DNA from: Escherichia coli
GTDB lineage: Bacteria > Pseudomonadota > Gammaproteobacteria > Enterobacterales > Enterobacteriaceae
Strand: one strand, 5' to 3'
DNA: 64,000 bases
NCBI RefSeq assembly: GCF_030013205.1
Contig: NZ_CP122648.1
The position numbers were made by a program, and so were the translations under genes. A model generated the notes under the pieces. The model ran no database searches and was not told the origin of the DNA. It saw only the letters and a list, made by a program, of their open reading frames with translations. Of the stretch, positions 5,418 through 43,501 are shown one piece after another. Position 1 is the stretch's first letter; each line of letters starts with the position of its first letter.

Positions 5418-6422
5418 ATGTCTGGTTCTATTGCCGTGACACGCGCCATTGCCGTGCCCGGATTGCTGTTATTACTGATTATCGCGACGGCATTAAGCCT
5501 GCTCATTGGGGCAAAATCACTCCCCGCTTTCGTAGTGCTGGAGGCCCTCTCCGGCACCTGCCAGAGCGCCGACTGCACCATCGTGCTCGACGCGCGACTG
5601 CCGCGCACCCTTGCCGGTTTACTAGCCGGCGGTGCGCTTGGCCTTGCCGGGGCGTTGATGCAAACCCTCACCCGAAACCCACTTGCCGACCCCGGCTTGC
5701 TTGGTGTGAACGCCGGAGCCAGCTTTGCCATTGTGCTGGGTGCGGCGCTGTTTGGTTACTCATCCGCGCAGGAACAACTGGCGATGGCCTTCGCCGGGGC
5801 GCTGGTGGCCTCATTGATTGTTGCCTTTACCGGCAGCCAGGGCGGCGGGCAGTTAAGTCCGGTGCGTTTAACCCTGGCGGGCGTGGCACTGGCGGCGGTG
5901 CTGGAAGGGCTGACCAGCGGCATCGCCCTGCTTAATCCTGACGTCTACGATCAGTTGCGTTTCTGGCAAGCCGGTTCGCTGGATATTCGCAATCTACATA
6001 CCTTAAAAGTGGTGCTGATCCCGGTGCTGATCGCCGGAGCAACCGCACTATTACTGAGCCGCGCGCTGAACAGTTTAAGCCTCGGCAGTGACACCGCGAC
6101 GGCGCTGGGTAGTCGCGTGGCGCGCACACAGTTGATTGGTCTGCTGGCGATTACCGTGCTTTGTGGTAGTGCGACGGCGGTAGTTGGCCCGATTGCCTTT
6201 ATTGGCCTGATGATGCCGCACATGGCGCGCTGGCTGGTAGGTGCCGATCATCGCTGGTCGCTGCCCGTCACGCTACTCGCCACCCCTGCCCTGCTGCTGT
6301 TTGCCGATATCATCGGGCGGGTGATTGTGCCCGGCGAACTGCGCGTTTCTATAGTCAGTGCCTTTATTGGCGCACCGGTGCTGATCTTCCTCGTGCGACG
6401 TAAAACGCGAGGTGGCGCATGA
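5418..6422 (+). CDS. fepD: ferric-enterobactin ABC transporter permease FepD
   Basis: ORF 5406..6422; start chosen at MSGSIAVTR (334 aa); FecCD-family permease sequence. Confidence 0.93.
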   Translation: MSGSIAVTRAIAVPGLLLLLIIATALSLLIGAKSLPAFVVLEALSGTCQSADCTIVLDARLPRTLAGLLAGGALGLAGALMQTLTRNPLADPGLLGVNAGASFAIVLGAALFGYSSAQEQLAMAFAGALVASLIVAFTGSQGGGQLSPVRLTLAGVALAAVLEGLTSGIALLNPDVYDQLRFWQAGSLDIRNLHTLKVVLIPVLIAGATALLLSRALNSLSLGSDTATALGSRVARTQLIGLLAITVLCGSATAVVGPIAFIGLMMPHMARWLVGADHRWSLPVTLLATPALLLFADIIGRVIVPGELRVSIVSAFIGAPVLIFLVRRKTRGGA

Positions 6423-13449: not shown

Positions 13450-13664
13450 TGCGCCTCCTGCAACTGGGTGAAATTCGACGGTGTCAGAGTACGCCAGTGG
13501 GCTTCCAGCCACTGCTGGCAGGACGCCTGTGACTGCGGCTGACACACAACGTCCCAGCCTGCCGGTAAGGCGCATTGTTGCGGCCACAGACTGAATTGCC
13601 CCTGCGCATTGCGCAAAATGTAAAACGCTCCCTGCGGATCATCGAAGGGATTACTGAATGCCAT
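13446..13664 (-). CDS. ybdZ: MbtH-like protein YbdZ
   Basis: 72-aa product MAFSNPFDDPQGAFYILRNAQGQFSLWP…; overlaps the entF start by 4 nt. Confidence 0.93.
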   Translation of the reverse strand: MAFSNPFDDPQGAFYILRNAQGQFSLWPQQCALPAGWDVVCQPQSQASCQQWLEAHWRTLTPSNFTQLQEAQ

Positions 13665-13666
13665 AT

Positions 13667-14869
13667 TCAACTCCTGTCATGGAAAAGTGGTTGCCAGAGG
13701 TCGATTAGCCCCTGCATCAAGCCACCGCGCCAACAAAGCGCATCATGTCCGCCGTCAACCTGACGCCAGAAAATGGATTCTTTTATGGGGTGTAATTGCG
13801 CATACAGCGCCTGATTGGCCCGCATGATCATCGGCTCGCGAATACCCGCTTCCAGCACAATGCGCAGACCTTCGGCGCTAACTTCACCAGCTTTAAGTTG
13901 CTCAAGTAACACGCCCTCTTGCTGCCCGCCCCGATGCGGCCACCAGTACGATCCTGACTGGCTTAATACACAGCCAAAGCGTTCAGGCCAGTTTAGTCCG
14001 GCATACAGCGCAGAAAGCCCACCAAAACTCTGCCCGGCGACCACGGTGCGATCGGCGCGATCGCTAAAAGGGGCAATAGCTTTCACCAGGGGTAATAACT
14101 CTTGCTGTACTGCCAGCCAGAAATCCGCATTACACGGCAGTTCGTGGGCGCGGTGCGGGGTGTCGATAGCGTCGATCAACACATACACGGCGGGAGGAAG
14201 TTGCTGACGATGGGTCAGCGAAGTTAGCGCAGGCCAGACGGGCATACTCTGCGCCCAAAATTCGCCATCAAGCAAAACTGCCAGCGGGCGTTCTTCTGCT
14301 GTTGCATCGCCGGTGGTAAAAATCCATACACGGCGTGAATTTTTCAGCCGCTCACTTTTCCAGATAATTTCTTTGACAGGCGTTTCTGGCGCTTGCGGAC
14401 AATCCCATCCCGGTTGCAGAGGCGCTTGCGGCATTTCGAGTGCAGAAACAGCGTGCCCTCGCCCGCCTTTCCAGCTTTGTGGATTCAGCGGATCGGCTAT
14501 CGCCTGGGGTAATAGTTTTCGCCAGCCTTCACGTAATTCGAGGCGATCGGGGGATGGTGCAGAAAAAATGTCATCGCGTTCGGTGGGAATAAAACAGTAG
14601 CTGCCGCGCCAGTTGGCATTAAGTTGTGTCGTCCACTGCCAGACGTTGGTACCTGCAATTCGCTGCATCGACTGGGGCTGGCTGTTCTGATGGTGATCGG
14701 TCACACCAGTGATGTAGACCCATACGCGCTTTATCGTCGAGTATTCTTCAGAACCTTGGGGATCACGCCACCAGAAAGTGACCTCAAACATTTCGTCATT
14801 CAGACGCTGCCATTCCGGGCCATGTTTCGACTGCCACCAGCTCTCACTTCCTACTTTTAACGCCGTCAC
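13667..14869 (-). CDS. fes: enterochelin esterase Fes
   Basis: 400-aa ORF MTALKVGSESWWQSKHGPEWQRLNDEMFEV…; esterase GQSFGG motif. Confidence 0.95.
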   Translation of the reverse strand: MTALKVGSESWWQSKHGPEWQRLNDEMFEVTFWWRDPQGSEEYSTIKRVWVYITGVTDHHQNSQPQSMQRIAGTNVWQWTTQLNANWRGSYCFIPTERDDIFSAPSPDRLELREGWRKLLPQAIADPLNPQSWKGGRGHAVSALEMPQAPLQPGWDCPQAPETPVKEIIWKSERLKNSRRVWIFTTGDATAEERPLAVLLDGEFWAQSMPVWPALTSLTHRQQLPPAVYVLIDAIDTPHRAHELPCNADFWLAVQQELLPLVKAIAPFSDRADRTVVAGQSFGGLSALYAGLNWPERFGCVLSQSGSYWWPHRGGQQEGVLLEQLKAGEVSAEGLRIVLEAGIREPMIMRANQALYAQLHPIKESIFWRQVDGGHDALCWRGGLMQGLIDLWQPLFHDRS

Positions 14870-14914
14870 ACCATAACCCCATGTTTACTGTGCAATTTTT
14901 CATTGATTGCAGAA

Positions 14915-14957
14915 ATATATTGATAATATTATTGATAACTATTTGCATTTGCAATAG
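14915..14957. promoter_or_regulatory. overlapping Fur boxes in the divergent fes / fepA promoter region
   Basis: attgataatattattgataactatttgcatttgcaatag carries tandem GATAAT…ATTATC-like hexamers. Confidence 0.75.
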
Positions 14958-15111
14958 CGTAATGGCGCGCCGTGGGAAGCGCGGACATTAATTAACCAAC
15001 TGCACTACGTGTCTTTCAGGATCAAAGGTTTTCGCGGTAGCGGGATGCGTCGTGTTGATGACGACCATGCCCGACAGTTGCAATTCGTGGCAAAAATGCA
15101 GGAATAAAACA

Positions 15112-17352
15112 ATGAACAAGAAGATTCATTCCCTGGCCTTGTTGGTCAATCTGGGGATTTATGGGGTAGCACAGGCACAAGAGCCAACCGATACTCCTGT
15201 TTCACATGACGATACCATTGTCGTTACCGCCGCCGAGCAGAACTTGCAAGCGCCTGGCGTTTCGACCATCACCGCAGATGAAATCCGCAAAAACCCCGTT
15301 GCCCGCGATGTGTCGGAGATCATCCGTACCATGCCAGGCGTTAACCTGACCGGTAACTCCACCAGTGGTCAGCGTGGGAATAACCGACAGATTGATATTC
15401 GCGGTATGGGTCCGGAAAACACGCTGATTTTGATTGACGGCAAGCCGGTAAGCAGCCGTAACTCGGTGCGCCAGGGCTGGCGTGGCGAGCGCGATACCCG
15501 TGGTGATACCTCCTGGGTGCCACCTGAAATGATTGAACGTATTGAAGTTCTGCGTGGTCCGGCAGCGGCGCGTTATGGCAACGGCGCGGCGGGCGGCGTG
15601 GTTAACATCATCACCAAAAAAGGCAGCGGCGAGTGGCACGGCTCCTGGGACGCATATTTCAATGCGCCAGAACATAAAGAGGAAGGTGCCACCAAACGCA
15701 CTAACTTTAGCCTCACCGGTCCGCTGGGCGACGAATTCAGCTTCCGCTTGTATGGCAACCTCGACAAAACTCAGGCTGACGCGTGGGATATCAACCAGGG
15801 CCATCAGTCCGCGCGTGCCGGAACGTATGCCACGACGTTACCAGCCGGGCGCGAAGGGGTAATTAACAAAGATATTAATGGCGTGGTGCGCTGGGACTTC
15901 GCGCCTCTGCAATCACTCGAACTGGAAGCGGGCTACAGCCGCCAGGGTAACCTGTATGCGGGCGATACCCAGAACACCAACTCTGACTCCTATACCCGCT
16001 CGAAATATGGCGATGAAACCAACCGTCTGTATCGCCAGAACTACTCGCTGACATGGAACGGCGGCTGGGATAACGGCGTGACCACCAGCAACTGGGTGCA
16101 GTACGAACACACCCGTAACTCGCGTATTCCGGAAGGTCTGGCGGGCGGTACCGAAGGGAAATTTAACGAAAAAGCGACACAGGATTTCGTCGATATCGAT
16201 CTCGATGATGTGATGCTGCACAGCGAAGTTAACCTGCCGATTGATTTCCTCGTTAACCAGACGCTGACGCTGGGTACGGAGTGGAATCAGCAACGGATGA
16301 AGGACTTGAGTTCCAATACCCAGGCGCTGACCGGGACGAATACCGGCGGTGCTATTGATGGTGTGAGTGCCACCGACCGTAGCCCGTATTCAAAAGCAGA
16401 AATTTTCTCGCTGTTTGCCGAAAACAACATGGAGCTGACTGACAGCACCATCGTAACGCCGGGGCTGCGTTTCGATCATCACAGCATTGTTGGCAATAAC
16501 TGGAGTCCGGCGCTGAACATCTCGCAAGGTTTAGGCGATGACTTCACTCTGAAAATGGGCATTGCCCGTGCTTATAAAGCGCCGAGTCTGTACCAGACTA
16601 ACCCGAACTACATTCTCTACAGTAAAGGTCAGGGCTGCTATGCCAGCGCGGGCGGCTGCTATCTGCAAGGTAATGATGACCTGAAAGCGGAAACCAGCAT
16701 CAACAAAGAGATTGGTCTGGAGTTCAAACGCGACGGCTGGCTGGCGGGCGTCACCTGGTTCCGTAACGATTATCGCAATAAGATTGAAGCGGGCTATGTG
16801 GCTGTAGGGCAAAACGCAGTCGGCACCGATCTCTATCAGTGGGATAACGTACCGAAAGCGGTGGTTGAAGGTCTGGAAGGATCGTTAAACGTACCGGTTA
16901 GCGAAACGGTGATGTGGACCAATAACATCACTTATATGCTGAAGAGTGAAAACAAAACCACGGGCGACCGTTTGTCGATCATCCCGGAGTATACGTTGAA
17001 CTCAACGCTGAGCTGGCAGGCACGGGAAGATTTGTCGATGCAAACAACCTTCACCTGGTACGGCAAGCAGCAGCCGAAGAAGTACAACTATAAAGGTCAG
17101 CCAGCGGTTGGACCGGAAACCAAAGAAATCAGCCCGTACAGCATTGTTGGCCTGAGCGCGACCTGGGATGTGACGAAGAATGTCAGTCTGACCGGCGGCG
17201 TGGACAACCTGTTCGACAAACGTTTGTGGCGTGCAGGTAATGCCCAGACCACGGGCGATCTGGCAGGAGCCAACTATATCGCCGGTGCCGGGGCGTATAC
17301 CTATAACGAGCCGGGACGTACGTGGTATATGAGCATTAATACTCACTTTTGA
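15112..17352 (+). CDS. fepA: TonB-dependent ferric-enterobactin outer membrane receptor FepA
   Basis: ORF 15052..17352; start chosen at MNKKIHSLALLVNLGIYGVAQA (746 aa); C-terminal aromatic residue (…SINTHF). Confidence 0.95.
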   Translation: MNKKIHSLALLVNLGIYGVAQAQEPTDTPVSHDDTIVVTAAEQNLQAPGVSTITADEIRKNPVARDVSEIIRTMPGVNLTGNSTSGQRGNNRQIDIRGMGPENTLILIDGKPVSSRNSVRQGWRGERDTRGDTSWVPPEMIERIEVLRGPAAARYGNGAAGGVVNIITKKGSGEWHGSWDAYFNAPEHKEEGATKRTNFSLTGPLGDEFSFRLYGNLDKTQADAWDINQGHQSARAGTYATTLPAGREGVINKDINGVVRWDFAPLQSLELEAGYSRQGNLYAGDTQNTNSDSYTRSKYGDETNRLYRQNYSLTWNGGWDNGVTTSNWVQYEHTRNSRIPEGLAGGTEGKFNEKATQDFVDIDLDDVMLHSEVNLPIDFLVNQTLTLGTEWNQQRMKDLSSNTQALTGTNTGGAIDGVSATDRSPYSKAEIFSLFAENNMELTDSTIVTPGLRFDHHSIVGNNWSPALNISQGLGDDFTLKMGIARAYKAPSLYQTNPNYILYSKGQGCYASAGGCYLQGNDDLKAETSINKEIGLEFKRDGWLAGVTWFRNDYRNKIEAGYVAVGQNAVGTDLYQWDNVPKAVVEGLEGSLNVPVSETVMWTNNITYMLKSENKTTGDRLSIIPEYTLNSTLSWQAREDLSMQTTFTWYGKQQPKKYNYKGQPAVGPETKEISPYSIVGLSATWDVTKNVSLTGGVDNLFDKRLWRAGNAQTTGDLAGANYIAGAGAYTYNEPGRTWYMSINTHF

Positions 17353-31166: not shown

Positions 31167-31850
31167 ATGAAACTGTTGATTGTCGAAGATGAAAAGAAAA
31201 CCGGAGAATACTTGACCAAAGGGTTAACCGAAGCCGGTTTTGTGGTCGATTTGGCCGACAACGGGCTGAATGGCTACCATCTGGCGATGACCGGAGATTA
31301 TGATCTGATAATCCTCGATATTATGCTGCCGGACGTGAACGGCTGGGATATCGTGCGCATGTTGCGTTCCGCCAATAAAGGGATGCCGATTCTGTTGCTT
31401 ACCGCGCTTGGTACCATTGAACATCGCGTCAAGGGGCTGGAGTTGGGGGCGGATGACTATCTGGTGAAGCCGTTCGCTTTTGCTGAACTGCTGGCGCGGG
31501 TGCGCACTCTACTGCGGCGCGGGGCGGCGGTAATTATCGAAAGTCAGTTTCAGGTTGCCGATCTGATGGTCGATCTCGTCAGCCGCAAAGTCACCCGCAG
31601 CGGCACGCGCATCACTCTGACCAGTAAAGAATTTACTCTGCTGGAGTTTTTCCTCCGCCATCAAGGCGAAGTGCTGCCCCGCTCGCTTATCGCCTCGCAG
31701 GTGTGGGACATGAATTTCGACAGCGATACCAACGCCATTGATGTGGCAGTGAAGCGGCTGCGCGGCAAAATCGACAACGACTTTGAGCCGAAGCTGATTC
31801 AAACCGTGCGCGGCGTGGGTTACATGCTTGAGGTGCCGGATGGTCAGTAA
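31167..31850 (+). CDS. cusR: copper-responsive response regulator CusR (OmpR family)
   Basis: 227-aa [36 protein letters not shown]…. Confidence 0.96.
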
Positions 31851-33288
31851 GCCATTTCAGCGCCCGTTTTCGCTGGCAACCCGCCTGACCTTTTTTATCA
31901 GCCTGGCCACCATCGCGGCGTTTTTCGCCTTTGCCTGGATCATGATTCACTCGGTAAAAGTGCATTTTGCTGAGCAGGATATTAATGATTTAAAAGAGAT
32001 TAGCGCCACACTCAAGCGCGTTCTTAATCATCCCGAAGAGACACAAGCCCGACGCTTAATGACGCTGGAAGATATCGTCAGTGGTTATTCCAATGTGTTG
32101 ATTTCCCTGGCAGATAGCCAGGGTAAAACGGTGTATCACTCCCCCGGTGCGCCGGATATCCGCGAGTTTACGCGTGACGCCATACCCGATAAAGACACGC
32201 GGGGCGGCGAGGTGTATCTCCTTTCCGGCCCGACGATTATGATGCCGGGCCACGGTCACGGGCATATGGAACACAGCAACTGGCGGATGATTAACTTGCC
32301 GGTTGGCCCGTTGGTGGACGGCAAACCGATTTATACGCTCTACATCGCGCTTTCGATCGATTTTCATCTTCATTACATAAATGATTTGATGAATAAACTT
32401 ATTATGACCGCATCGATCATCAGCATCCTGATCGTCTTTATCGTGCTGTTGGCGGTACATAAAGGTCACGCACCGATCCGCAGCGTCAGCCGTCAAATCC
32501 AGAACATTACCTCGAAAGATCTCGACGTTCGCCTTGACCCGCAGACCGTGCCGATTGAGCTGGAACAGCTGGTACTGTCGTTCAACCATATGATCGAGCG
32601 TATTGAGGATGTCTTTACTCGCCAGTCCAATTTCTCAGCGGATATCGCTCACGAAATTCGTACACCAATTACGAATCTCATAACGCAAACCGAAATCGCC
32701 CTCAGCCAGTCACGCAGCCAGAAGGAGCTGGAAGATGTGCTCTACTCTAATCTCGAAGAGCTGACGCGAATGGCGAAAATGGTCAGCGATATGCTGTTTC
32801 TCGCCCAGGCCGATAACAACCAGCTAATCCCCGAAAAGAAAATGCTCAACCTGGCGGATGAAATCGGCAAAGTGTTCGATTTTTTCGAGGCGCTAGCGGA
32901 AGATCGCGGCGTGGAACTGCGGTTTGTTGGTGACGAGTGTCAGGTTGCGGGCGATCCGCTGATGCTGCGTCGGGCGTTAAGCAACCTGCTTTCGAACGCC
33001 CTGCGTTATACGCCGCCCGGAGAGGCGATTGTAGTGCGCTGCCAGACGGTCGATCACCAGGTGCAAGTTTCCGTCGAAAACCCCGGTACGCCCATTGCGC
33101 CCGAGCACTTACCGCGATTGTTTGACCGTTTCTACCGCGTTGACCCCTCCCGCCAGCGAAAAGGCGAAGGTAGCGGTATTGGGCTGGCGATAGTGAAATC
33201 GATTGTTGTCGCGCATAAAGGCACGGTTGCAGTAACGTCAGATGCTCGGGGGACAAGGTTTGTGATTATGCTGCCGGAGAGAGAGTGA
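31840..33288 (+). CDS. cusS: copper-sensing histidine kinase CusS
   Basis: Start chosen at [19 protein letters not shown] inside ORF 31828..33288, overlapping the cusR stop; HisKA/HATPase motifs. Confidence 0.93.
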
Positions 33289-33644
33289 TTATTAAGTTCA
33301 AATTCAGGGCGTGGTGCATCACCTCCTGGTATTGTTGATCAACAAATTAGAGAAAAACTTATTAAACATATGAAATATCGAAGGCTTTTATTTTTCAAAG
33401 TTTCACGAGATGTTTGTATATGAAACTTAGTTAAATCTGTGTTTCTTCCAATTGTAGATCACAATGCCCTTTCTAAATTTTCATCGTTATAAACAAGCCA
33501 TCTATCATATAAAGCAATGAATAATTTAATCGCGATTAATCATCATTAATTGTTATATTATTCACTCAATCTATTTATCAAGTGAATTTGATAAATTCCT
33601 AATTTAAAATATCCACTATTGAGCCAGTATTTAACAACGTTAAG

Positions 33645-33672
33645 ATGTGCAATGTGCAATGTGCAATGTGCA
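33645..33672. repeat. tandem heptanucleotide repeat (ATGTGCA)x4
   Basis: atgtgcaatgtgcaatgtgcaatgtgca read directly in the AT-rich region upstream of vgrG. Confidence 0.9.
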
Positions 33673-34038
33673 GATCATGTTATCAGGGTGGAGCGGTAGC
33701 ATATATTTCTTATGCAATCATTCATTTTAATAATGTTAATTGGATTATTTATTGCTGTGAATAAAAATATATTATGAATATTGGTTTAACTTTGCGTTTT
33801 TGTTACTCGTTGTGATATGCGTACCTGTCCTGAATAACGCCAAGAAACAAGAGGTTGAGCTTGTGATTATTTTTTTGACTGAACAGACACCCGTTTCTGT
33901 AAAGTAATATTTAAACAAAATTCTCACATAACCATAGCATTTTCTGTTCCTTCCCTAATAACGTCTGAAGTCGTCCCGCTTATCACATTATCCGCAGTTG
34001 TACGGTACGGATCATTATTCATTTTACTGGAGGTTGCT

Positions 34039-35925
34039 ATGTCAACCGGATTACGTTTCACACTGGAAGTGGACGGCCTGCCGCCGGATGCTTTTGCGGT
34101 GGTTTCCTTTCATCTGAACCAGTCACTCTCTTCGCTCTTTTCCCTCGATCTCTCCCTGGTCAGCCAGCAGTTTCTCTCCCTTGAATTTGCGCAGGTGCTG
34201 GACAAAATGGCCTACCTGACGATATGGCAGGGCGATGAAGTACAGCGCCGGGTGAAAGGCGTGGTGACCTGGTTTGAACTCGGGGAGAACGACAAAAACC
34301 AGATGCTGTACAGCATGAAGGTGCACCCGCCGCTGTGGCGTGCCGGTCTGCGCCAGAACTTCCGTATCTTCCAGAACGAGGACATCAAAAGCATCCTCGG
34401 CACGATGTTGCAGGAAAACGGGGTGACCGAATGGAGTCCGCTGTTCAGCGAGCCGCATCCTTCCCGTGAGTTTTGTGTCCAGTACGGTGAGACTGATTAC
34501 GATTTCCTGTGCCGGATGGCGGCGGAGGAAGGCATCTTCTTTTATGAGGAGCATGCTTACAAAAGTACCGACCAGAGCCTGGTGCTGTGCGACACAGTCC
34601 GCCATCTGCCCGAATCTTTTGAAATCCCATGGAACCCGAACACCCGTACCGAGGTGAGCACCCTCTGCATCAGCCAGTTCCGCTACAGCGCACAAATCCG
34701 CCCTTCTTCCGTGGTGACCAAAGACTACACCTTTAAACGCCCCGGCTGGGCCGGACGTTTTGAACAGGAAGGCCAGCACCAGGACTACCAGCGCACGCAG
34801 TATGAAGTGTATGACTACCCCGGACGTTTCAAGGGTGCCCACGGGCAGAACTTTGCCCGCTGGCAGATGGACGGCTGGCGAAACAATGCAGAAACCGCGC
34901 GGGGAATGAGTCGTTCGCCGGAGATATGGCCGGGACGACGAATTGTGCTGACGGGGCATCCGCAGGCGAACCTGAACCGGGAATGGCAGGTGGTGGCAAG
35001 TGAACTGCACGGCGAACAGCCACAGGCGGTGCCAGGACGGCAGGGAGCGGGGACGGCGCTGGAGAACCATTTTGCGGTGATCCCGGCAGACAGAACATGG
35101 CGACCACAGCCGTTGCTGAAACCGCTGGTCGACGGCCCGCAGAGCGCTGTCGTGACAGGACCGGCAGGCGAGGAAATCTTCTGCGACGAACATGGTCGCG
35201 TGCGGGTGAAGTTCAACTGGGACCGTTATAACCCGGCAGACCAAGACAGTTCGTGCTGGATCCGTGTGGCACAGGCGTGGGCAGGCACCGGTTTTGGCCA
35301 CCTGGCGATACCACGTGTGGGTCAGGAAGTCATTGTGGACTTCCTCAACGGCGATCCGGACCAGCCGATCATTATGGGGCGCACCTACCACCAGGAAAAC
35401 CGCCCCCCCGGCAGCCTGCCGGGAACAAAGACGCAGATGACCATCCGCTCCAAAACGTACATGGGCAGCGGATTTAATGAGCTGAAGTTTGATGATGCGA
35501 CAGGGAGAGAACAGGTCTACATCCACGCGCAGAAGAACATGGATACCGAAGTGCTCAACGACCGTACCACCACCGTAAAACACGATCACCGCGAAACCGT
35601 AAAAAATGACCAGACGGTCACGATCCAGGAAGGTAACCGCCTTCTTACGGTGGAAAAAGGCCACAAGATCACCGGAGTACTGAAAGGGTCTTTATCTGAG
35701 GATGTCTTTCAGGACAGAGGCACGATTGCCGGTTCGGTGCATGTTGACGCTGTAAACAATGGTGGCGAAGGCGACGGTATACAGGCTTATACGGCGATTA
35801 AGGAAATTTTGCTGGCCGTGGAGGAAAGCAAAATTGCGCTGACGCCGGATGGCATTCAGCTACAGGTCGGGGAATCGACGGTACCGGATCACAGGTGTCA
35901 GTCACACCGACGGGATCCGGCTTAA
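34039..35925 (+). CDS. vgrG: VgrG (Rhs-element Vgr protein / T6SS spike), 3' end replaced out of frame at a deletion junction near 35880
   Basis: 628-aa ORF with gp27/gp5-like VgrG sequence (…GRVRVKFNWDRYNPADQDSSCWIRVAQAWAG…IALTPDGIQLQVGESTV) ending in an unrelated 15-aa tail PDHRCQSHRRDPA. Confidence 0.8.
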   Translation: MSTGLRFTLEVDGLPPDAFAVVSFHLNQSLSSLFSLDLSLVSQQFLSLEFAQVLDKMAYLTIWQGDEVQRRVKGVVTWFELGENDKNQMLYSMKVHPPLWRAGLRQNFRIFQNEDIKSILGTMLQENGVTEWSPLFSEPHPSREFCVQYGETDYDFLCRMAAEEGIFFYEEHAYKSTDQSLVLCDTVRHLPESFEIPWNPNTRTEVSTLCISQFRYSAQIRPSSVVTKDYTFKRPGWAGRFEQEGQHQDYQRTQYEVYDYPGRFKGAHGQNFARWQMDGWRNNAETARGMSRSPEIWPGRRIVLTGHPQANLNREWQVVASELHGEQPQAVPGRQGAGTALENHFAVIPADRTWRPQPLLKPLVDGPQSAVVTGPAGEEIFCDEHGRVRVKFNWDRYNPADQDSSCWIRVAQAWAGTGFGHLAIPRVGQEVIVDFLNGDPDQPIIMGRTYHQENRPPGSLPGTKTQMTIRSKTYMGSGFNELKFDDATGREQVYIHAQKNMDTEVLNDRTTTVKHDHRETVKNDQTVTIQEGNRLLTVEKGHKITGVLKGSLSEDVFQDRGTIAGSVHVDAVNNGGEGDGIQAYTAIKEILLAVEESKIALTPDGIQLQVGESTVPDHRCQSHRRDPA

Positions 35926-38900
35926 ACTGACGTACCACGCCAGCGGCTACCTGAAAGCCATTCACCGCACGGATAACGGCATACAGACGCTGGCGACCTA
36001 CGAACAGGATGCGCGGGGGCGGCTGACAGAAGCGGATGCGCGGCTGGACTACCACCTGTTTTATGAGTACGACGCTGCGGACCGGATCATCCGCTGGTCC
36101 GATAACGACCAGACGTGGAGCCGTTTCACCTACGATGAACAGGGCCGGTGCGTGAATGTCACCGGGGCGGAGGGCTATTACAACGCCACGCTGGACTATG
36201 GTGACGGCTGCACCACCGTGACGGACGGCAAGGGCATTCACCGTTATTACTATGATCCTGACGGCAATATTCTGCGGGAAGCAGCGCCGGACGGCAGCAC
36301 CACCATGTATGAATGGGATGAATTCCATCACCTGCTGGCCCGTCACTCCCCTGCCGGGCGGGTGGAGAAATTTGAATACAACGCCGCACACGGTCAGTTA
36401 AGCCGTTACACGGCGGCAGACGGCGCGGAGTGGCAGTACCGCTATGATGAGCGCGGCCTGCTCAGCAACATCACCGACCCTGCCGGGCAGACGTGGACAC
36501 AGCAGTGTGATGAACGCGGCCTGCCGGTAAGTCTGGTGTCGCCACAGGGCGAAGAGACCCGGCTGGCATACACCGCTCAGGGGCTGCTGTCGGGAATATT
36601 CCGCCAGGATGAACGGCGTCTGGGCATAGAGTACGACCACCACAACCGGCCGGAAACACTCACCGACGTGATGGGCCGTGAACACCACACCGAATACAGC
36701 GGTCACGACCTGCCGGTGAAGATGCGCGGCCCCGGCGGTCAGTCAGTGCGGTTACAGTGGCAGCAGCACCATAAACTGAGCGGCATTGAACGTGCTGGAA
36801 CCGGCGCGGAAGGATTCCGCTACGACCGCCACGGCAACCTGCTGGCCTGGACGGACGGCAACGGCGTTGTCTGGACAATGGAATACGGCCCGTTTGATTT
36901 GCCGGTGGCGCGAACGGACGGTGAAGGCCACCGCTGGCAGTACCGCTACGATAAAGACACGCTGCAACTGACAGAAGTCATTAACCCGCAGGGTGAGTCA
37001 TATCTTTATGTTCTGGATAACTGCGGCCGGGTGACGGAAGAGCATGACTGGGGCGGCGTGGTCTGGCGTTACCGCTATGACGCCGATGGCCTGTGTACCG
37101 CCAGGGTCAACGGCCTGGAGGAAACCATCCTCTACAGCCGGGACGCCGCAGGCCGCCTGGCAGAAGTCATCACGCCGGAAGGCAAAACGCAGTATGCGTA
37201 TGACAAATCCGGCAGGCTTACGGGTATCTTCAGCCCGGACGGCACATCACAGCGCACCGGCTATGACGAACGCGGGCGGGTGAATGTCACCACTCAGGGC
37301 CGACGGGCCATTGAATACCACCACCCCGATGAACACACCGTCATCCGCTGTATCCTGCCACCGGAAGATGAACGCGACAGACACCCCGGTGAATCCCTGC
37401 TGAAAACCACGTACCGCTACAACGCCGCCGGAGAACTGACGGAGGTTATCCTGCCGGGGGATGAGACGCTGACGTTCAGCCGTGATGAGGCAGGACGTGA
37501 AGTGCTCCGGCACAGTAACCGGGGTTTTGCCTGTGAACAGGGCTGGAATGCAGCCGGCCAGTCTGTCAGCCAGCGCGCCGGATTTTTCCCGGAAGAAGCC
37601 ACATGGGGCGGGCTGGTTCCGTCACTGGCGCGGGAATACCGTTATGACAGCGCGGGCAATGTGTCGGCTGTCACCAGCCGGGAAGATTACGGACGGGAAA
37701 CACGGCGGGAATACCGGCTGGACCGGAACGGCCAGGTCACGGCGGTGACAGCCTCAGGCACCGGGCTGGGCTATGGCGAAGGCGATGAGTCCTATGGCTA
37801 TGACAGCTGCGGCTACCTGAAGGCGCAGTCTGCGGGCTGGCACCGGATAAGTGAAGAGACTGACCAGTATGCCGGAGGCCACCGGCTGAAACAGGCCGGA
37901 AACACGCAGTATGACTATGACGCCGCAGGCCGGATGGTCAGCCGCACCAGACACCGTGACGGCTATCGCCCGGAAACAGAGCGGTTCCGGTGGGACAGCC
38001 GTGACCAGCTGACCGGGTATTGCAGCGCACAGGGTGAGCAGTGGGAATACCGCCACGACGCCAGCGGCAGACGAACAGAGAAACGCTGCGACCGGAAGAA
38101 AATCCGCTTCACGTATCTGTGGGACGGCGACAGTATTGCGGAAATCCGGGAATACCGCGATGATAAACTGTACAGCGTACGGCACCTGGTGTTTAACGGC
38201 TTTGAGCTGATAAGCCAGCAGTTCAGCCGGGTACGGCAGGCGCATCCGTCGGTGGCCCCGCAGTGGGTGACACGGACGAATCATGCGGTGAGCGACCTGA
38301 CGGGCCGTCCGCTGATGCTCTTTAACAGTGAAGGTAAAACCGTCTGGCGACCGGGACAGACCAGCCTGTGGGGGCTGGCACTCAGCCTGCCCGCAGACAC
38401 CGGCTACCCGGACCCGCGCGGGGAACTGGACCCGGAAGCCGACCCCGGCCTGCTGTATGCGGGACAGTGGCAGGATGCAGAATCCGGGCTGTGCTATAAC
38501 CGGTTCCGGTATTACGAGCCGGAAACCGGGATGTACCTGGTGAGTGATCCGCTGGGGTTGCTGGGGGGTGAGCAGACTTACCGGTATGTGCCAAATCCGT
38601 GTGGGTGGGTTGATCCGCTGGGATTGGCTGCAAGTTCTAAAATCAGCAGTTTGATGGACTATATTGGCGATGGTCGTCGTGTTAGTGGGCATACGGGTTT
38701 CCTGGATGGGGTTCGTTTATCACGTAGTCAAATAAACAATATTGCTAAAGAAATGGAGAAGCTAGGAATTAAAGTAATAAGGAAAGCAGATAAATATTTG
38801 CCACCAAATGCTAGGGCAGCTTTTGATTATGGCCTTCGCAATATTTATCTTAGGAAAAATGCCACCTTATATGAGGTGTATCATGAAGTGATTCATGCTA

Positions 38901-39079
38901 AGCAATTTGCGAAAATTGGACGAGAAGCATACGAAGCACTAGGACGTTTATCTAGGGAGGAACACGTTCTAAATGAAATATTAAAAAGTAAAAATTTATT
39001 CAATGAAGCGGAAATAGCTCATGCCATAAAATATGTTGAGGGATTGAGAGAAAAATTCATGATGGGACTAATAAATTGA
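35849..39079 (+). CDS. Rhs protein remnant: YD-repeat core (5'-truncated, no PAAR/N-terminal region) plus a 150-aa variable C-terminal toxin domain
   Basis: 1076-aa ORF rich in YD repeats, core-end motif YVPNPCGWVDPLGL at about 38585-38626, then a low-GC C-terminal tail containing HEVIH; the only ATG is a fortuitous one inside vgrG-derived sequence. Confidence 0.8.
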   Translation: MAFSYRSGNRRYRITGVSHTDGIRLKLTYHASGYLKAIHRTDNGIQTLATYEQDARGRLTEADARLDYHLFYEYDAADRIIRWSDNDQTWSRFTYDEQGRCVNVTGAEGYYNATLDYGDGCTTVTDGKGIHRYYYDPDGNILREAAPDGSTTMYEWDEFHHLLARHSPAGRVEKFEYNAAHGQLSRYTAADGAEWQYRYDERGLLSNITDPAGQTWTQQCDERGLPVSLVSPQGEETRLAYTAQGLLSGIFRQDERRLGIEYDHHNRPETLTDVMGREHHTEYSGHDLPVKMRGPGGQSVRLQWQQHHKLSGIERAGTGAEGFRYDRHGNLLAWTDGNGVVWTMEYGPFDLPVARTDGEGHRWQYRYDKDTLQLTEVINPQGESYLYVLDNCGRVTEEHDWGGVVWRYRYDADGLCTARVNGLEETILYSRDAAGRLAEVITPEGKTQYAYDKSGRLTGIFSPDGTSQRTGYDERGRVNVTTQGRRAIEYHHPDEHTVIRCILPPEDERDRHPGESLLKTTYRYNAAGELTEVILPGDETLTFSRDEAGREVLRHSNRGFACEQGWNAAGQSVSQRAGFFPEEATWGGLVPSLAREYRYDSAGNVSAVTSREDYGRETRREYRLDRNGQVTAVTASGTGLGYGEGDESYGYDSCGYLKAQSAGWHRISEETDQYAGGHRLKQAGNTQYDYDAAGRMVSRTRHRDGYRPETERFRWDSRDQLTGYCSAQGEQWEYRHDASGRRTEKRCDRKKIRFTYLWDGDSIAEIREYRDDKLYSVRHLVFNGFELISQQFSRVRQAHPSVAPQWVTRTNHAVSDLTGRPLMLFNSEGKTVWRPGQTSLWGLALSLPADTGYPDPRGELDPEADPGLLYAGQWQDAESGLCYNRFRYYEPETGMYLVSDPLGLLGGEQTYRYVPNPCGWVDPLGLAASSKISSLMDYIGDGRRVSGHTGFLDGVRLSRSQINNIAKEMEKLGIKVIRKADKYLPPNARAAFDYGLRNIYLRKNATLYEVYHEVIHAKQFAKIGREAYEALGRLSREEHVLNEILKSKNLFNEAEIAHAIKYVEGLREKFMMGLIN

Positions 39080-39327
39080 TAAAACATAACAAAATAACTA
39101 TCGAAATGGCTCTTGACTTGGCTCGGCGTGAGTTAGAGTTAAGGGAAATTCCTTATATTAAAAATAGTCTACATGCCAATTACAGCTATAAATCTATTAG
39201 TATTGGTTCTAAGCAAGGTTGGTTAATTTCAGCGAAATTAAAAGTCCCTGAAACTTTTGAGCCTGATATGATATTTATTGAGATATCTGACCCAGAAGGT
39301 TTTATTAATATTCCTGATGTATTATAA
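39076..39327 (+). CDS. candidate Rhs immunity protein (small acidic protein encoded directly after the rhs CT)
   Basis: 83-codon ORF overlapping the rhs stop (TTGA); low-GC like the CT domain; start ambiguous (TTG at 39076 or ATG at 39106). Confidence 0.55.
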   Translation: MIKHNKITIEMALDLARRELELREIPYIKNSLHANYSYKSISIGSKQGWLISAKLKVPETFEPDMIFIEISDPEGFINIPDVL

Positions 39328-39441
39328 ACTACGTTAGAGGTTTTGTTATAAGGTAATCGGTTTCTTTACAGACCGCTGGCGTACATCGCACAGAGGCTGC
39401 TAACAGGGATATTCCTGCCTGGATGAACGCAAGGCAAGATC

Positions 39442-39753
39442 ATGGAAATAGTGATATACATCACTATTTCCATCCTGATTTTAGCTATCGCATTAATAAA
39501 ACAGCGGATGTTAGCCAATATCGAAACCAGTAACCCGTATCACGCCCAGTACATCCTGCGCCGCCGCGATGATTACCTGGTGCTGTTCGACCGTGATGCC
39601 CTGAGCTGCCGCTTCTTTTATGACGCCTTTCCGGGAATGCGTCTGCGCCACCAGGTGACCGGCGATACCGACGATGACCGCCTGGCACACAGCCCCGCAG
39701 ACCGGATGTATACAGGGAAAGATCATCAGAAGTACACTTTTTGTACTAAATAA
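39442..39753 (+). CDS. hypothetical small protein, possibly a chimeric or orphan fragment
   Basis: 103-codon ORF: hydrophobic AT-rich N-terminus joined to a GC-rich 3' portion (39530-39720) that looks displaced from another gene. Confidence 0.3.
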   Translation: MEIVIYITISILILAIALIKQRMLANIETSNPYHAQYILRRRDDYLVLFDRDALSCRFFYDAFPGMRLRHQVTGDTDDDRLAHSPADRMYTGKDHQKYTFCTK

Positions 39754-39779
39754 TTCACATTTTATGTTTAAAAATTGAG

Positions 39780-41060
39780 ATATTCCTCATTACCTGAAGC
39801 TGTTTTTTATTGCTTATACATGATCAAATACTCCTTACATAATTAAGGAGAACAAAATGGAACTTAAAAAATTGATGGAACATATTTCTATTATTCCCGA
39901 TTACAGACAAGCCTGGAAAGTGGAACATAAATTATCGGATATTCTATTGTTGACTATTTGTGCCGTTATTTCTGGTGCGGAAGATTGGGAAGATATAGAG
40001 GATTTTGGGGAAACACATCTCGATTTTTTGAAGCAATATGGTGATTTTGAAAATGGTATTCCTGTTCACGATACCATTGCCAGAGTTGTATCCTGTATCA
40101 GTCCTGCAAAATTTCACGAGTGCTTTATTAACTGGATGCGTGACTGCCATTCTTCAGATGATAAAGACGTCATTGCAATTGATGGAAAAACGCTCCGGCA
40201 CTCTTATGACAAGAGTCGCCGCAGGGGAGCGATTCATGTCATTAGTGCGTTCTCAACAATGCACAGTCTGGTCATCGGACAGATCAGGACGGATGAGAAA
40301 TCCAATGAGATTACAGCTATCCCAGAACTTCTTAACATGCTGGATATTAAAGGAAAAATCATCACAACTGATGCGATGGGTTGCCAGAAAGATATTGCAG
40401 AGAAGATACAAAAACAGGGAGGTGATTATTTATTCGCGGTAAAAGGAAACCAGGGGCGGCTAAATAAAGCCTTCGAGGAAAAATTTCCGCTGAAAGAATT
40501 AAATAATCCAGAGCATGACAGTTACGCAATGAGTGAAAAGAGTCACGGCAGAGAAGAAATCCGTCTTCACATTGTTTGCGATGTCCCTGATGAACTTATT
40601 GATTTCACGTTTGAATGGAAAGGTCTGAAGAAATTATGCGTGGCAGTCTCCTTTCGGTCAATAATAGCAGAACAAAAGAAAGAGCCAGAAATGACGGTCA
40701 GATATTATATTAGTTCTGCTGATTTAACCGCAGAGAAGTTCGCCACAGCAATCCGAAACCACTGGCACGTGGAGAATAAGCTGCACTGGCGTCTGGACGT
40801 GGTAATGAATGAAGACGACTGCAAAATAAGAAGAGGAAATGCAGCAGAATTATTTTCAGGGATACGGCACATCGCTATTAATATTTTGACGAATGATAAG
40901 GTATTCAAGGCAGGGTTAAGACGTAAGATGCGAAAAGCAGCCATGGACAGAAACTATCTGGCGTCAGTCCTTGCGGGGAGCGGGCTTTCGTAATCTTGCC
41001 CTGCCTGCTCACCTCCTCCAGGCACTTCCACTACATGATGACCTGCTCGGTGCCACCGCT
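39780..41060 (+). mobile_element. H-repeat (ISAs1-family) insertion element; boundaries approximate
   Basis: Contains the 378-aa H-repeat-associated transposase ORF typical of Rhs-linked H-rpt elements; terminal repeats not resolved. Confidence 0.5.
39857..40993 (+). CDS. H-repeat-associated protein / ISAs1-family transposase
   Basis: 378-aa [54 protein letters not shown]… recognised as the YhhI/YdcC/YbfD H-rpt protein family. Confidence 0.85.
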
Positions 41061-41263
41061 CCTTTTCACTATGACGTTAACCTCCCTGTCCCAGGACACC
41101 ATGCTTTTGTCTACATTCTACGCAAACGGCAACTTTTATAACCAGTGTAAAAATAACGTGCCGCAATAGTCATACCTATTAATGGTAAAAAGCTGTCACA
41201 ATTCATAAAAAACCTTAATATACGCCACCCTAAACATAACCAGCGTTAATGTAAGGTTTTTGT

Positions 41264-43501
41264 GTGGACTGGCTTCTTGATGTTTTTGCTACCTGGCTCT
41301 ACGGCTTAAAAGTAATCGCGATAACGTTAGCGGTCATCATGTTCATCAGCGGGCTGGACGATTTTTTTATTGATGTCGTCTACTGGGTACGCCGCATTAA
41401 ACGCAAGTTGAGTGTTTATCGCCGCTACCCGCGAATGAGTTACCGCGAACTGTATAAACCAGATGAAAAACCGTTAGCGATTATGGTTCCGGCGTGGAAT
41501 GAAACGGGCGTCATCGGCAATATGGCCGAGCTGGCGGCGACCACGCTCGACTATGAAAACTATCATATCTTTGTTGGCACCTACCCCAACGACCCCGATA
41601 CTCAGCGTGATGTTGACGAAGTGTGCGCTCGCTTCCCGAATGTGCATAAGGTAGTCTGCGCGCGACCTGGCCCCACCAGCAAAGCCGACTGCCTGAACAA
41701 CGTGCTGGACGCCATCACCCAGTTTGAGCGTAGCGCCAATTTCGCTTTTGCTGGTTTTATTCTGCATGACGCCGAAGATGTGATTTCACCGATGGAATTG
41801 CGTCTGTTCAACTATCTGGTCGAGCGTAAAGATCTGATTCAGATCCCGGTGTATCCGTTCGAACGCGAATGGACGCACTTCACCAGCATGACTTACATTG
41901 ATGAGTTTTCAGAACTGCATGGCAAAGATGTTCCGGTGCGTGAAGCCCTCGCCGGACAAGTGCCCAGCGCAGGCGTCGGTACCTGTTTCAGCCGCCGCGC
42001 CGTGACCGCACTGTTAGCTGACGGTGACGGTATTGCTTTCGACGTGCAGAGTCTTACTGAAGATTACGACATTGGTTTCCGCCTGAAAGAAAAAGGTATG
42101 ACGGAAATTTTTGTCCGTTTTCCGGTGGTGGACGAAGCCAAAGAACGCGAGCAGCGTAAATTTTTACAGCACGCGCGGACGTCAAACATGATCTGCGTGC
42201 GCGAATATTTCCCCGATACCTTTTCGACTGCGGTTCGACAAAAATCTCGCTGGATCATCGGCATTGTTTTCCAGGGCTTTAAAACCCACAAATGGACCTC
42301 CAGCCTGACGCTGAACTACTTTCTCTGGCGCGACCGCAAAGGGGCAATCAGTAACTTTGTCAGCTTCCTCGCGATGCTGGTGATGATCCAGCTTTTGCTG
42401 TTACTGGCGTATGAAAGTTTGTGGCCCGATGCCTGGCATTTCCTTTCTATTTTCAGCGGCAGCGCATGGTTAATGACCCTGCTGTGGCTAAACTTTGGTT
42501 TAATGGTTAACCGCATCGTGCAGCGGGTGATTTTTGTCACTGGCTACTACGGTCTGACGCAGGGGCTGCTATCTGTCCTGCGTCTTTTCTGGGGCAACCT
42601 GATTAACTTCATGGCCAACTGGCGCGCGTTAAAACAGGTACTTCAACACGGCGATCCACGTCGCGTCGCGTGGGATAAAACAACGCATGACTTCCCCAGC
42701 GTGACTGGCGATACCCGCTCGTTGCGTCCGTTAGGTCAAATCCTGCTGGAAAATCAGGTCATCACTGAAGAACAACTCGATACAGCACTGCGTAATCGCG
42801 TCGAAGGTCTACGCCTGGGCGGTTCAATGCTGATGCAGGGGCTGATTAGCGCCGAACAGCTGGCACAGGCGCTGGCAGAGCAAAACAGCGTGGCGTGGGA
42901 GTCGATCGACGCCTGGCAGATCCCTTCATCACTGATTGCCGAAATGCCGGCCTCCGTGGCGCTGCATTATGCAGTGCTGCCGCTGCGTCTGGAAAATGAT
43001 GAGTTAATTGTCGGCAGTGAAGATGGTATTGACCCGGTTTCGCTGGCAGCCCTGACGCGTAAAGTCGGACGCAAAGTGCGTTACGTCATTGTTCTGCGGG
43101 GACAAATTGTCACGGGGTTACGCCACTGGTATGCGCGCCGACGCGGTCACGATCCGCGGGCAATGTTGTACAATGCGGTTCAGCATCAGTGGCTCACGGA
43201 ACAGCAGGCCGGTGAAATCTGGCGGCAATATGTGCCGCATCAGTTCCTGTTCGCCGAAATACTGACCACGCTCGGTCATATTAATCGTTCAGCAATTAAC
43301 GTGTTGTTATTGCGCCATGAACGTAGTTCTCTGCCGCTCGGCAAGTTTTTGGTCACCGAAGGCGTTATCAGCCAGGAAACGTTGGATCGCGTCCTGACAA
43401 TTCAACGCGAATTACAAGTTTCGATGCAATCACTATTACTCAAAGCAGGTTTAAACACAGAACAGGTTGCGCAACTGGAGTCCGAAAATGAAGGAGAATA
43501 A
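41264..43501 (+). CDS. nfrB: NfrB (phage N4 adsorption protein B; family-2 glycosyltransferase with c-di-GMP-binding C-terminal domain)
   Basis: 745-aa ORF with GTG start, MDWLLDVFATWLYGLKVIAITLAVIMF…. Confidence 0.93.
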   Translation: MDWLLDVFATWLYGLKVIAITLAVIMFISGLDDFFIDVVYWVRRIKRKLSVYRRYPRMSYRELYKPDEKPLAIMVPAWNETGVIGNMAELAATTLDYENYHIFVGTYPNDPDTQRDVDEVCARFPNVHKVVCARPGPTSKADCLNNVLDAITQFERSANFAFAGFILHDAEDVISPMELRLFNYLVERKDLIQIPVYPFEREWTHFTSMTYIDEFSELHGKDVPVREALAGQVPSAGVGTCFSRRAVTALLADGDGIAFDVQSLTEDYDIGFRLKEKGMTEIFVRFPVVDEAKEREQRKFLQHARTSNMICVREYFPDTFSTAVRQKSRWIIGIVFQGFKTHKWTSSLTLNYFLWRDRKGAISNFVSFLAMLVMIQLLLLLAYESLWPDAWHFLSIFSGSAWLMTLLWLNFGLMVNRIVQRVIFVTGYYGLTQGLLSVLRLFWGNLINFMANWRALKQVLQHGDPRRVAWDKTTHDFPSVTGDTRSLRPLGQILLENQVITEEQLDTALRNRVEGLRLGGSMLMQGLISAEQLAQALAEQNSVAWESIDAWQIPSSLIAEMPASVALHYAVLPLRLENDELIVGSEDGIDPVSLAALTRKVGRKVRYVIVLRGQIVTGLRHWYARRRGHDPRAMLYNAVQHQWLTEQQAGEIWRQYVPHQFLFAEILTTLGHINRSAINVLLLRHERSSLPLGKFLVTEGVISQETLDRVLTIQRELQVSMQSLLLKAGLNTEQVAQLESENEGE

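Follow-up and report, generated by a model that had tools for sequence, protein, structure and literature searches.

The vgrG-rhs overlap in the cusS-nfrB island

The DNA examined here (the window) is a stretch of 64,000 nucleotides (nt) from Escherichia coli contig NZ_CP122648.1 (RefSeq assembly GCF_030013205.1). Between cusS and nfrB, it carries an island in which vgrG, a type VI secretion system (T6SS) spike gene, overlaps an rhs gene that is followed by a presumed immunity gene. A first-pass annotation, made from the letters of the window, had described the two open reading frames (ORFs) as overlapping out of frame, with rhs in the +1 frame, and this was what we found. The vgrG ORF extended from 34039 to 35925 (628 amino acids [aa]), and the rhs-frame ORF extended from 35849 to 39079 (1,076 aa), which created a 77-nt overlap. 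The features of the locus are given below; locus labels begin with L, and L004, the cusS-nfrB locus of the swine isolate CFSAN018748, served as the parent-type reference.

31840..33288, plus strand: cusS, left chromosomal flank of the island (annotation of the identical ETEC4067 sequence)
34039..35883, plus strand: native part of the vgrG remnant, 615 of 633 codons of a vgrGO1/vgrG1-type spike gene (NCBIfam TIGR03361 VI_Rhs_Vgr, E = 1.8e-188; 99.4% identical to the L004 vgrG up to L004 4081)
35849..35880, plus strand: vgrG-derived DNA that supplies the only upstream start (ATG 35849) and 11 unrelated rhs-frame residues (preceding stop ends at 35842)
35881..35883, plus strand: very probable deletion junction, a 3-nt microhomology (GTA) common to the vgrG and rhs sides (the left alignment runs to 35883 and the right one begins at 35881)
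35884..35925, plus strand: 13-codon foreign VgrG tail PDHRCQSHRRDPA plus stop, encoded by rhs DNA in the vgrG reading frame (from comparison of the translation with that of the parent)
35884..39079, plus strand: rhs remnant, parental residues 556-1620, a YD-repeat shell lacking the N-terminal plug, followed by the double DPLGL motif and the toxin (Pfam, NCBIfam, and the PGAP annotation)
38546..38626, plus strand: pair of DPLGL motifs spaced 17 residues apart; this aspartyl autocleavage site marks where the toxin domain begins (motif described in PMC8636562)
38669..39055, plus strand: Tox-MPTase4 (zincin-like metallopeptidase) toxin domain; its HEVIH zinc motif is at 38882-38896 (Pfam PF15640, E = 5.8e-32)
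39118..39327, plus strand: presumed immunity gene, 69 aa, WP_001299578.1, also readable from TTG 39076 (annotation in four loci)
41264..43501, plus strand: nfrB, right chromosomal flank of the island (annotation)

The VgrG translation was native through LQVGESTV (615 residues) and then ended in 13 foreign residues, whereas the parental VgrG continues after GESTV with IRLSKDGITIVGGSVFIN. The first-pass annotation had put this unrelated tail at 15 aa, and comparison with the parent shortened it to 13. In the rhs frame, an in-frame stop ended at 35842, ATG 35849 was the first start codon after it, and the following in-frame start was GTG 36152. The proposal that a fortuitous ATG inside vgrG-derived DNA begins the rhs frame was therefore borne out, as ATG 35849 was the only upstream start. 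The ORF that begins there consisted of 11 out-of-frame residues from vgrG DNA and parental Rhs residues 556 to 1620. No Shine-Dalgarno (SD) sequence was located at a usable distance from ATG 35849 in the upstream sequence aaattgcgctgacgccgg. A promoter and terminator scan of 33289-39900 yielded no more sites than shuffled sequence and was uninformative on expression. The gene did not encode an evolved (effector-fused) VgrG, since rhs was in the +1 frame and VgrG terminated at 35925.

A single deletion relative to the parent-type locus

All genome searches were performed against 5,426 complete E. coli genomes. When positions 35400-36400 were used as a megablast query, nt 1-484 of the query matched vgrG genes and nt 482-1001 matched rhs genes. 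With a 7,975-nt island query, the same sequence was spread over about 10.2 kb in many genomes, CFSAN018748 among them. The gene order in L004 was cusS, vgrG (633 aa), a DcrB-related gene (153 aa), rhs (1,620 aa, with a zincin-like metallopeptidase toxin), the 69-aa ORF, an rhs fragment, ISEc1, and nfrB.

Window positions 33289-35883 aligned to L004 1501-4081 at 99.4% identity, and window positions 35881-41263 aligned to L004 6311-11693 at 99.5% identity, with the two blocks overlapping by the 3 nt GTA. In a three-way alignment, the vgrG sequence GACGGTA|ATCAGG and the rhs sequence CCAGTA|CCGGATC were joined through GTA. Because the flanks aligned to L004 in two blocks that abut at GTA, one deletion of exactly 2,232 bp at the same chromosomal site explained the window. 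The deletion comprised VgrG residues 616-633 (the last 18 codons), the entire eagR/DcrB (DUF1795) gene, and rhs codons 1-555 of 1,620. Its length is divisible by three, yet the join is out of frame because the parental vgrG and rhs genes are in different frames.

The first-pass annotation had anticipated a single deletion of the vgrG 3' end, an adaptor gene, and the rhs 5' end, and the one 2,232-bp difference from L004 agreed with this. It had also proposed aligning the window to intact loci and looking for junction microhomology; the alignment defined the deleted interval, and the microhomology amounted to only 3 nt (GTA). Its placement of the junction 270 to 300 residues into Rhs fit classical Rhs proteins but not the true 1,620-aa parent, in which the junction fell at residue 556. 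In particular, window residue 25 aligned to about residue 281 of a 1,370-aa classical Rhs, which was distantly related (24% identity).

These results indicate, with little room for doubt, that the vgrG-rhs junction is a real deletion scar, namely, a lineage-specific inactivating deletion of the cusS-nfrB vgrGO1(vgrG1)-eagR-PAAR-Rhs-CT1(MPTase4)-immunity island. One illegitimate recombination event with a 3-nt microhomology would have excised the 2,232 bp. The removed interval would have held the last 18 vgrG codons, the eagR/DcrB-family chaperone gene, and the rhs codons for the prePAAR, transmembrane (TM) regions, PAAR, DUF6531 plug, and first shell repeats. What was left over would be a VgrG whose C-terminal tip is scrambled, an rhs pseudogene that cannot be translated or is translated poorly, and an intact immunity gene.

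Domains lost and domains retained

The deleted eagR gene (L004 4166-4627) was located wholly inside the deletion, and its product matched Pfam DcrB (PF08786, formerly DUF1795; E = 1.7e-27). No Eag/DUF1795 chaperone gene was found directly upstream of rhs in the window. The deleted Rhs N terminus contained prePAAR_I (parent residues 54-100), a PAAR_motif (266-310), and DUF6531 (393-455). As the first-pass annotation had stated, no PAAR or N-terminal region remained: the 1,076-aa window ORF had no PAAR or prePAAR match in Pfam or NCBIfam. A closed shell with an N-terminal plug was likewise missing; the RHS/YD repeats were present, and DUF6531, which probably corresponds to the plug region, was gone together with about 100 shell residues that precede residue 556.

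The rhs remnant retained 10 significant Pfam RHS_repeat matches, the NCBIfam YD_repeat and Rhs_assc_core matches, and Tox-MPTase4 at ORF residues 941-1069. A double DPxGL autocleavage motif (DPLGL twice, ORF residues 900-926) preceded the toxin domain. The G+C content was 36% in the toxin region, 32% in the immunity region, and 62% in the rhs core, as is usual for rhs tips. The 69-aa ORF had no Pfam or NCBIfam family match. It had the same accession (WP_001299578.1) in intact and deleted loci and was in the expected downstream position, which suggests that it is the immunity gene. Thus, the toxin/immunity cassette was preserved, as originally noted, with Tox-MPTase4, the double DPLGL motif, and the presumed immunity gene all intact.

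In the case of VgrG, the gp27- and gp5-like domains were present (TIGR03361, residues 7-517, E = 1.8e-188); the parental protein matched Phage_GPD, Phage_base_V, and Gp5_trimer_C. The C-terminal end of the beta-helix, which is the PAAR-receiving surface, was not intact because its last 18 residues were replaced by 13 unrelated ones. Judging from PMC8636562, VgrG has probably lost its tip function. The same work showed that, in a related Rhs, deletion of prePAAR alone abolishes VgrG attachment and that the shell is closed by an N-terminal plug. Since prePAAR, PAAR, the plug domain, and EagR are needed for VgrG loading in related systems (PMC8636562) and are gone here, the rhs product should not be deliverable, and the window copy probably cannot be mounted on a T6SS spike.

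Distribution of the junction

As a single aligned piece, the exact junction was found in 13 of the 5,426 genomes with a 300-nt query. A 1,001-nt junction query at ≥80% coverage had returned 28 genomes, a misleading number as it included two-piece matches from other deletion alleles, and the 300-nt query was used instead. The 13 genomes were those of two O139:H1 isolates from France, W13-16 and P15-25, and of eleven pig "ETEC" isolates from Belgium, and the hosts were pigs or wild boar in all cases. W13-16 and P15-25 are O139:H1 ST1 edema-disease strains that were sequenced with PacBio technology (PMC8798679). Over the 300 nt, two of the 13 differed from the window, by one substitution each, and the ETEC4067 sequence showed 100% identity to the window across 7,975 bp.

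Of the 5,426 genomes, 2,368 contained the left end of the island. In 2,187 genomes, coverage of the segment spanning the vgrG 3' end, eagR, and the rhs start was at least 80%, and in 110 it was only partial, which indicates that the intact form of the island is the rule. RefSeq (PGAP) already labels the rhs gene in the junction genomes as a pseudogene ("incomplete; missing N-terminus").

T6SS genes in the junction genomes

In ETEC4067, the T6SS-2 cluster between aspV and yafV (L012 18950-34174) retained tssB, tssC, tssE, tssF, tssG, tssJ, tssK, and tssL. However, tagH contained an internal stop, tssH was 3' truncated and abutted a VasL remnant, and neither tssA nor tssM was annotated in the cluster. 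The hcp and vgrG genes beside tssB were gone; a second hcp downstream of the VasL remnant was still annotated. The rhs gene adjacent to the cluster was, like that in the window, annotated as "missing N-terminus." When vgrG paralog matches were explored for the main T6SS cluster, one proved to be this degraded aspV T6SS-2 and another was only an rhsE-type island.

The T6SS-2 cluster of CFSAN018748 (L014) had the full gene layout but carried IS66 in vgrG and several annotated stops or frameshifts. Compared with it, ETEC4067 had two deletions of 7 to 8 kb each. One (L014 14797-22763) removed the rhs 5' end, vgrG, IS66, and hcp; the other (L014 35439-42479) removed the tssH 3' end, vasI, tssA, tssM, and the vasL 5' end. 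Both T6SS-2 junctions were found in 17 genomes, which were the 13 junction genomes plus K_EC180 (Korea) and EC556, EC571, and EC581 (Japan), and all were from pigs.

T6SS-1 was assessed via a chimeric megablast query composed of the 1,001-nt junction anchor, the T6SS-2 tssB of ETEC4067 as a positive control, and tssBC of Sci-1 from enteroaggregative E. coli (EAEC) 042. This query matched two places in each of the 13 genomes, compared to one for the anchor alone, which indicates that T6SS-2 tssB was present; Sci-1-type (042-type) T6SS-1 tssBC was absent from the 13 genomes at megablast sensitivity. Hence, a complete T6SS of the T6SS-2 or Sci-1 type was not found in the same genome (ETEC4067, with the junctions in all 13). 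The first-pass suggestion that the element is probably not deliverable by a T6SS was in line with these findings and with the loss of prePAAR, PAAR, plug, and EagR.

The published virulence inventory of W13-16 and P15-25 lists "T6SS, vgrG1, rhsA" (PMC8798679). Because both the apparatus and the effector locus are deletion remnants in these two inventoried strains, presence/absence inventories over-call T6SS capacity here.

Age of the deletion and sister alleles

Outside a patch of 470 bp in the rhs remnant, the window differed from L004 by 3 substitutions in about 4.9 kb to the right of the junction and by 2 substitutions and a 14-bp indel in about 2.6 kb to the left. The deletion therefore appears to be recent, as only 5 substitutions separated the window from L004 in about 7.5 kb. 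An open rhs reading frame is expected without selection after a recent deletion, and the frame is most likely intact because the deletion is young and not because of selection.

The cusS locus occurred in three states within the 17-genome clone: the window type (n = 13), that of K_EC180, and that of EC556. In K_EC180, vgrG nt 1509 was joined via TACCG to the same rhs position as in the window (L016 10779-10783, corresponding to window 35548 to 35882). Thus, vgrG was cut 334 bp further upstream, and the rhs remnant was 100% identical over 5,382 bp. This allele is either a secondary 334-bp deletion from the old junction or an independent deletion that reused the site. In EC556, a Japanese pig isolate and the member of the series with EC571 and EC581 in which the cusS locus was inspected, vgrG nt 927 was fused to a 5'-truncated nfrB (L017 27092-28916), and the rhs remnant, immunity gene, and ISEc1 were gone. 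Continuing neutral deletion fits this three-state pattern better than strong retention of the toxin/immunity pair does. Because the clone has also deleted essential T6SS-2 genes, the rhs scar would be one stage in the breakdown of a weapon system that has fallen out of use.

Alternative explanations

The idea that the junction arose as an artefact of assembly or sequencing, or that Rhs naturally starts at this position, has next to no chance of being correct. We found nothing in its favor. The identical junction was present as a single piece in 13 complete assemblies from two independent projects and from different platforms, a 2,232-bp gap cannot be a base-calling error, and the parent with a 555-residue longer N terminus is the common form. 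The findings that the first-pass annotation had named as grounds for abandoning its reading thus failed to appear. It is equally hard to credit that a VgrG-Rhs fusion (an "evolved VgrG") is produced via +1 ribosomal frameshifting in the 77-nt overlap. The frames do overlap at 35849-35925 and differ by +1, and the overlap contains the rare codons AGG, CGA, and CGG. On reading 35849-35925, however, we saw no known +1 slippery motif (e.g., of the CUU-UGA type) and no well-placed upstream SD-like stimulator. Moreover, the overlap is the accidental product of a recent deletion with 3-nt microhomology, the T6SS apparatus is deleted, and in K_EC180 another 334 bp of vgrG have been deleted there. An origin in two steps from a locus like L003 (RIVM_C036569), by a 5' deletion and homologous recombination that displaced the main C-terminal toxin region (CT), was considered first, as the window aligned to both the main rhs (97.4%) and the orphan rhs (99.2%) of L003. 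It was dropped once L004 was identified as a one-step parent and is now very unlikely; L004-type loci are widespread (match rows H54-H85) and include a swine isolate whose flanks and T6SS-2 region are 99.5 to 99.95% identical to those of the clone.

Two further explanations allow for the deletion and give the remnant a function. The one to which we assign some, though clearly minority, probability is that the locus is kept by selection on the immunity gene, so that a disarmed cell is still protected against neighbors delivering Rhs-CT1. The presumed immunity gene may indeed protect against kin that fire Rhs-CT1: the ORF is identical (WP_001299578.1) in intact and deleted loci, many E. coli strains carry the intact effector (including pig isolate ETEC1731 of the same collection), and orphan immunity genes that guard against non-self effectors are a known theme (PMC10539506). 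Against this, the immunity gene of EC556 disappeared together with the rest of the island, promoter-like sites were no more frequent than chance, and too little time has passed since the deletion to tell retention from lack of decay. We consider it improbable that the remnant is instead kept as a recombination reservoir, that is, as an orphan rhs-CT/immunity module that homologous recombination could transfer to a full-length rhs at another place in the genome. Re-arming of orphan rhs genes is said to have been documented in Salmonella by Koskiniemi et al. in 2014. Exchange with another rhs copy is indicated by the patch at 37198-37669 (24 of 27 differences), the 7,975-nt island query matched 5 to 6 places per junction genome, the extra ones most likely being rhs paralogs, and the MPTase4 module is a displaced orphan in L003 and the main CT in L004, which points to previous exchange. 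However, a re-armed toxin could not be fired by a clone with no working T6SS-2 and no T6SS-1, the other rhs at the T6SS-2 locus is also 5' truncated, relatives have lost the module entirely, and the conversion patch may predate or postdate the deletion and may have been copied in either direction.

Nothing was found that speaks against the deletion as such, and the points that follow bear on the wider reading of the scar as part of a decaying weapon system. The T6SS status refers to T6SS-2 and Sci-1-type T6SS-1 and was read in the best-matching complete genomes rather than in the genome of the window. The T6SS-2 genes may have been lost before or after the rhs deletion, since the nesting of 13 genomes within 17 fits either loss of the apparatus first or a history in which all of the deletions were ancestral and some were then overwritten by larger ones. 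Finally, the rhs remnant may be translated from ATG 35849 or from internal starts.

Viewed as an inactivating deletion, the locus provides a base-by-base record of how a T6SS effector island was disabled in the O139:H1 ST1 edema-disease clone, with loss of the effector island accompanying deletion of essential T6SS-2 genes. The three allelic states within one clone form a small natural time series of deletional decay. The importance is modest and the general interest is low; the scar represents ordinary decay of a gene in an E. coli clone that is pathogenic to pigs and whose injection machine is broken.

Other deletion alleles and breakpoint reuse

Junction-centered queries identified nine other deletion alleles of the island in unrelated strains. 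Like the window, the alleles of EM20-18-50, CT02, PSJ-22, ST540, 2017.02.03CC, M37H, S3, 13C1079T, and K_EC180 had lost eagR and/or the rhs 5' region, in part or completely, through short-microhomology joins, and their rhs genes were PGAP pseudogenes. Unlike the window, they had different breakpoints; the right breakpoint of the window was shared with K_EC180 only.

Among the ten alleles, the eagR breakpoint GTCATTA(CC) (L004 4268-4278) was used four times. The rhs breakpoint GGTTA|ACCCGTATC (L004 6066-6075) was used three times and also formed the left edge of an old rhs relic at window 39531, and the rhs breakpoint CAGTA|CCGGATC (L004 6309-6316) was used twice, the window junction included. 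The junction microhomologies mostly contained TA (TTA, TACC, GTA, and TACCG), and the right hot spot contained GTTAAC. In simulations with uniform, independent breakpoints, the chance of such clustering was about 5e-5 for the left side and 3e-3 for the right, for a sample ascertained by proximity to the window junction in which independence of the alleles was not established and some may derive from others by short-repeat slippage. For example, L007 could derive from an L020-type allele by secondary slippage between TTAACC repeats. Homologous recombination was rejected as a way of deriving L007, L006, and similar alleles from each other because the junction is a single point. It is doubtful, in our judgment, that the deletions disarming the island are non-random, either through site-preferred DNA breakage and joining or through convergent selection that removes the chaperone and prePAAR-TMD (transmembrane domain) region and spares the toxin/immunity end.

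One further locus, L002 (Res13-Lact-PEB20-37-A; 11050-16655), had the rhs 3' part deleted and rhs joined towards nfrB. This 5.6-kb stretch is labelled "nrfB, frameshifted" by PGAP and looks like a misannotated rhs::nfrB deletion fusion.

Other features of the island

Three additional features were located in or next to the rhs remnant.

37198..37669, plus strand: gene-conversion-like patch in the rhs remnant with 24 of the 27 differences from the parent-type allele (comparison with L004)
39531..39710, plus strand: older rhs relic of 180 bp, 92% identical to parental rhs nt 6071-6250 and adjoining ISEc1 (present in intact and deleted loci alike)
39857..40993, plus strand: ISEc1 (ISAs1 family, "H-repeat") transposase, right edge of the island (NCBIfam NF033564, E = 4e-125)

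In the patch, the L004 allele and the orphan MPTase4 rhs of L003 shared 99.2% identity, and the window allele was 95% identical to every rhs compared. The patch looks like a conversion tract from another rhs copy. In L003 (6337-14643), the main rhs had a different toxin/immunity pair, and the MPTase4 module was displaced downstream as an orphan. As L003 carries the module in this displaced form, the module appears to move by C-terminal displacement or recombination. In the intact parent, the 180-bp relic formed a 92% direct repeat with the rhs 5' region.

Just 3' of the presumed immunity gene, positions 39442-39473 contained a perfect palindrome with a 14-bp stem that resembled a terminator. 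In the cusS-vgrG intergenic region, the window had a 14-bp insertion relative to L004 (33645-33658) that consisted of two ATGTGCA units and looked like a variable 7-bp tandem repeat.

Comparison with known systems

The closest characterized system was the vgrGO1-eagR(DUF1795)-PAAR-Rhs-CT1 island of Shiga toxin-producing and enterotoxigenic E. coli (PMC6730261). According to that review, Rhs-CT1, an E. coli Rhs with an MPTase4 toxin, was characterized by Ma et al. (2017b; Environ Microbiol 19:345) as a T6SS-dependent antibacterial effector, and it needs vgrGO1 and eagR/DUF1795. The same set of gene families, Tox-MPTase4, and a small immunity ORF are found in both; the window has lost eagR, the VgrG tip, and the N-terminal 555 residues of Rhs and is an inactivated form. 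Strain EDL933 has the same arrangement, vgrG1-eagR(z0706)-rhsF, and its VgrGs are of the T6SS-2 type (PMC7216683). The position of the island between cusS and nfrB was established here in the E. coli genomes that we inspected and not from these papers.

The VgrG-EagR-Rhs1 system of Photorhabdus laumondii (PMC8636562) resembled the parent of the window in having prePAAR-TMD-PAAR-postPAAR, a plug, a YD shell, a double DPLGL motif 17 residues apart, and a CT toxin. It differed in that the toxin is the ADP-ribosyltransferase Tre23, and the window copy lacked every element that was shown to be needed for mounting on VgrG.

The remnant also resembled the orphan rhs-CT/immunity modules of Jackson et al. 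2009, as cited in PMC6730261. Both have a promoterless, startless rhs 3' fragment, an intact low-G+C toxin/immunity pair, and core homology, and the window remnant bore evidence of recombination with rhs paralogs, as such modules do. However, classical orphans arise by C-terminal displacement and are found behind a full-length rhs, whereas here a deletion removed the 5' half of the sole rhs gene that the locus had, and the remainder was fused to vgrG. In other words, 5' truncation and an intact CT/immunity end were observed, and the gene upstream was vgrG rather than a full-length rhs. The window locus is therefore the known, characterized vgrGO1-eagR-Rhs-CT1 system in an inactivated state, which is a familiar kind of rhs pseudogene or orphan remnant.

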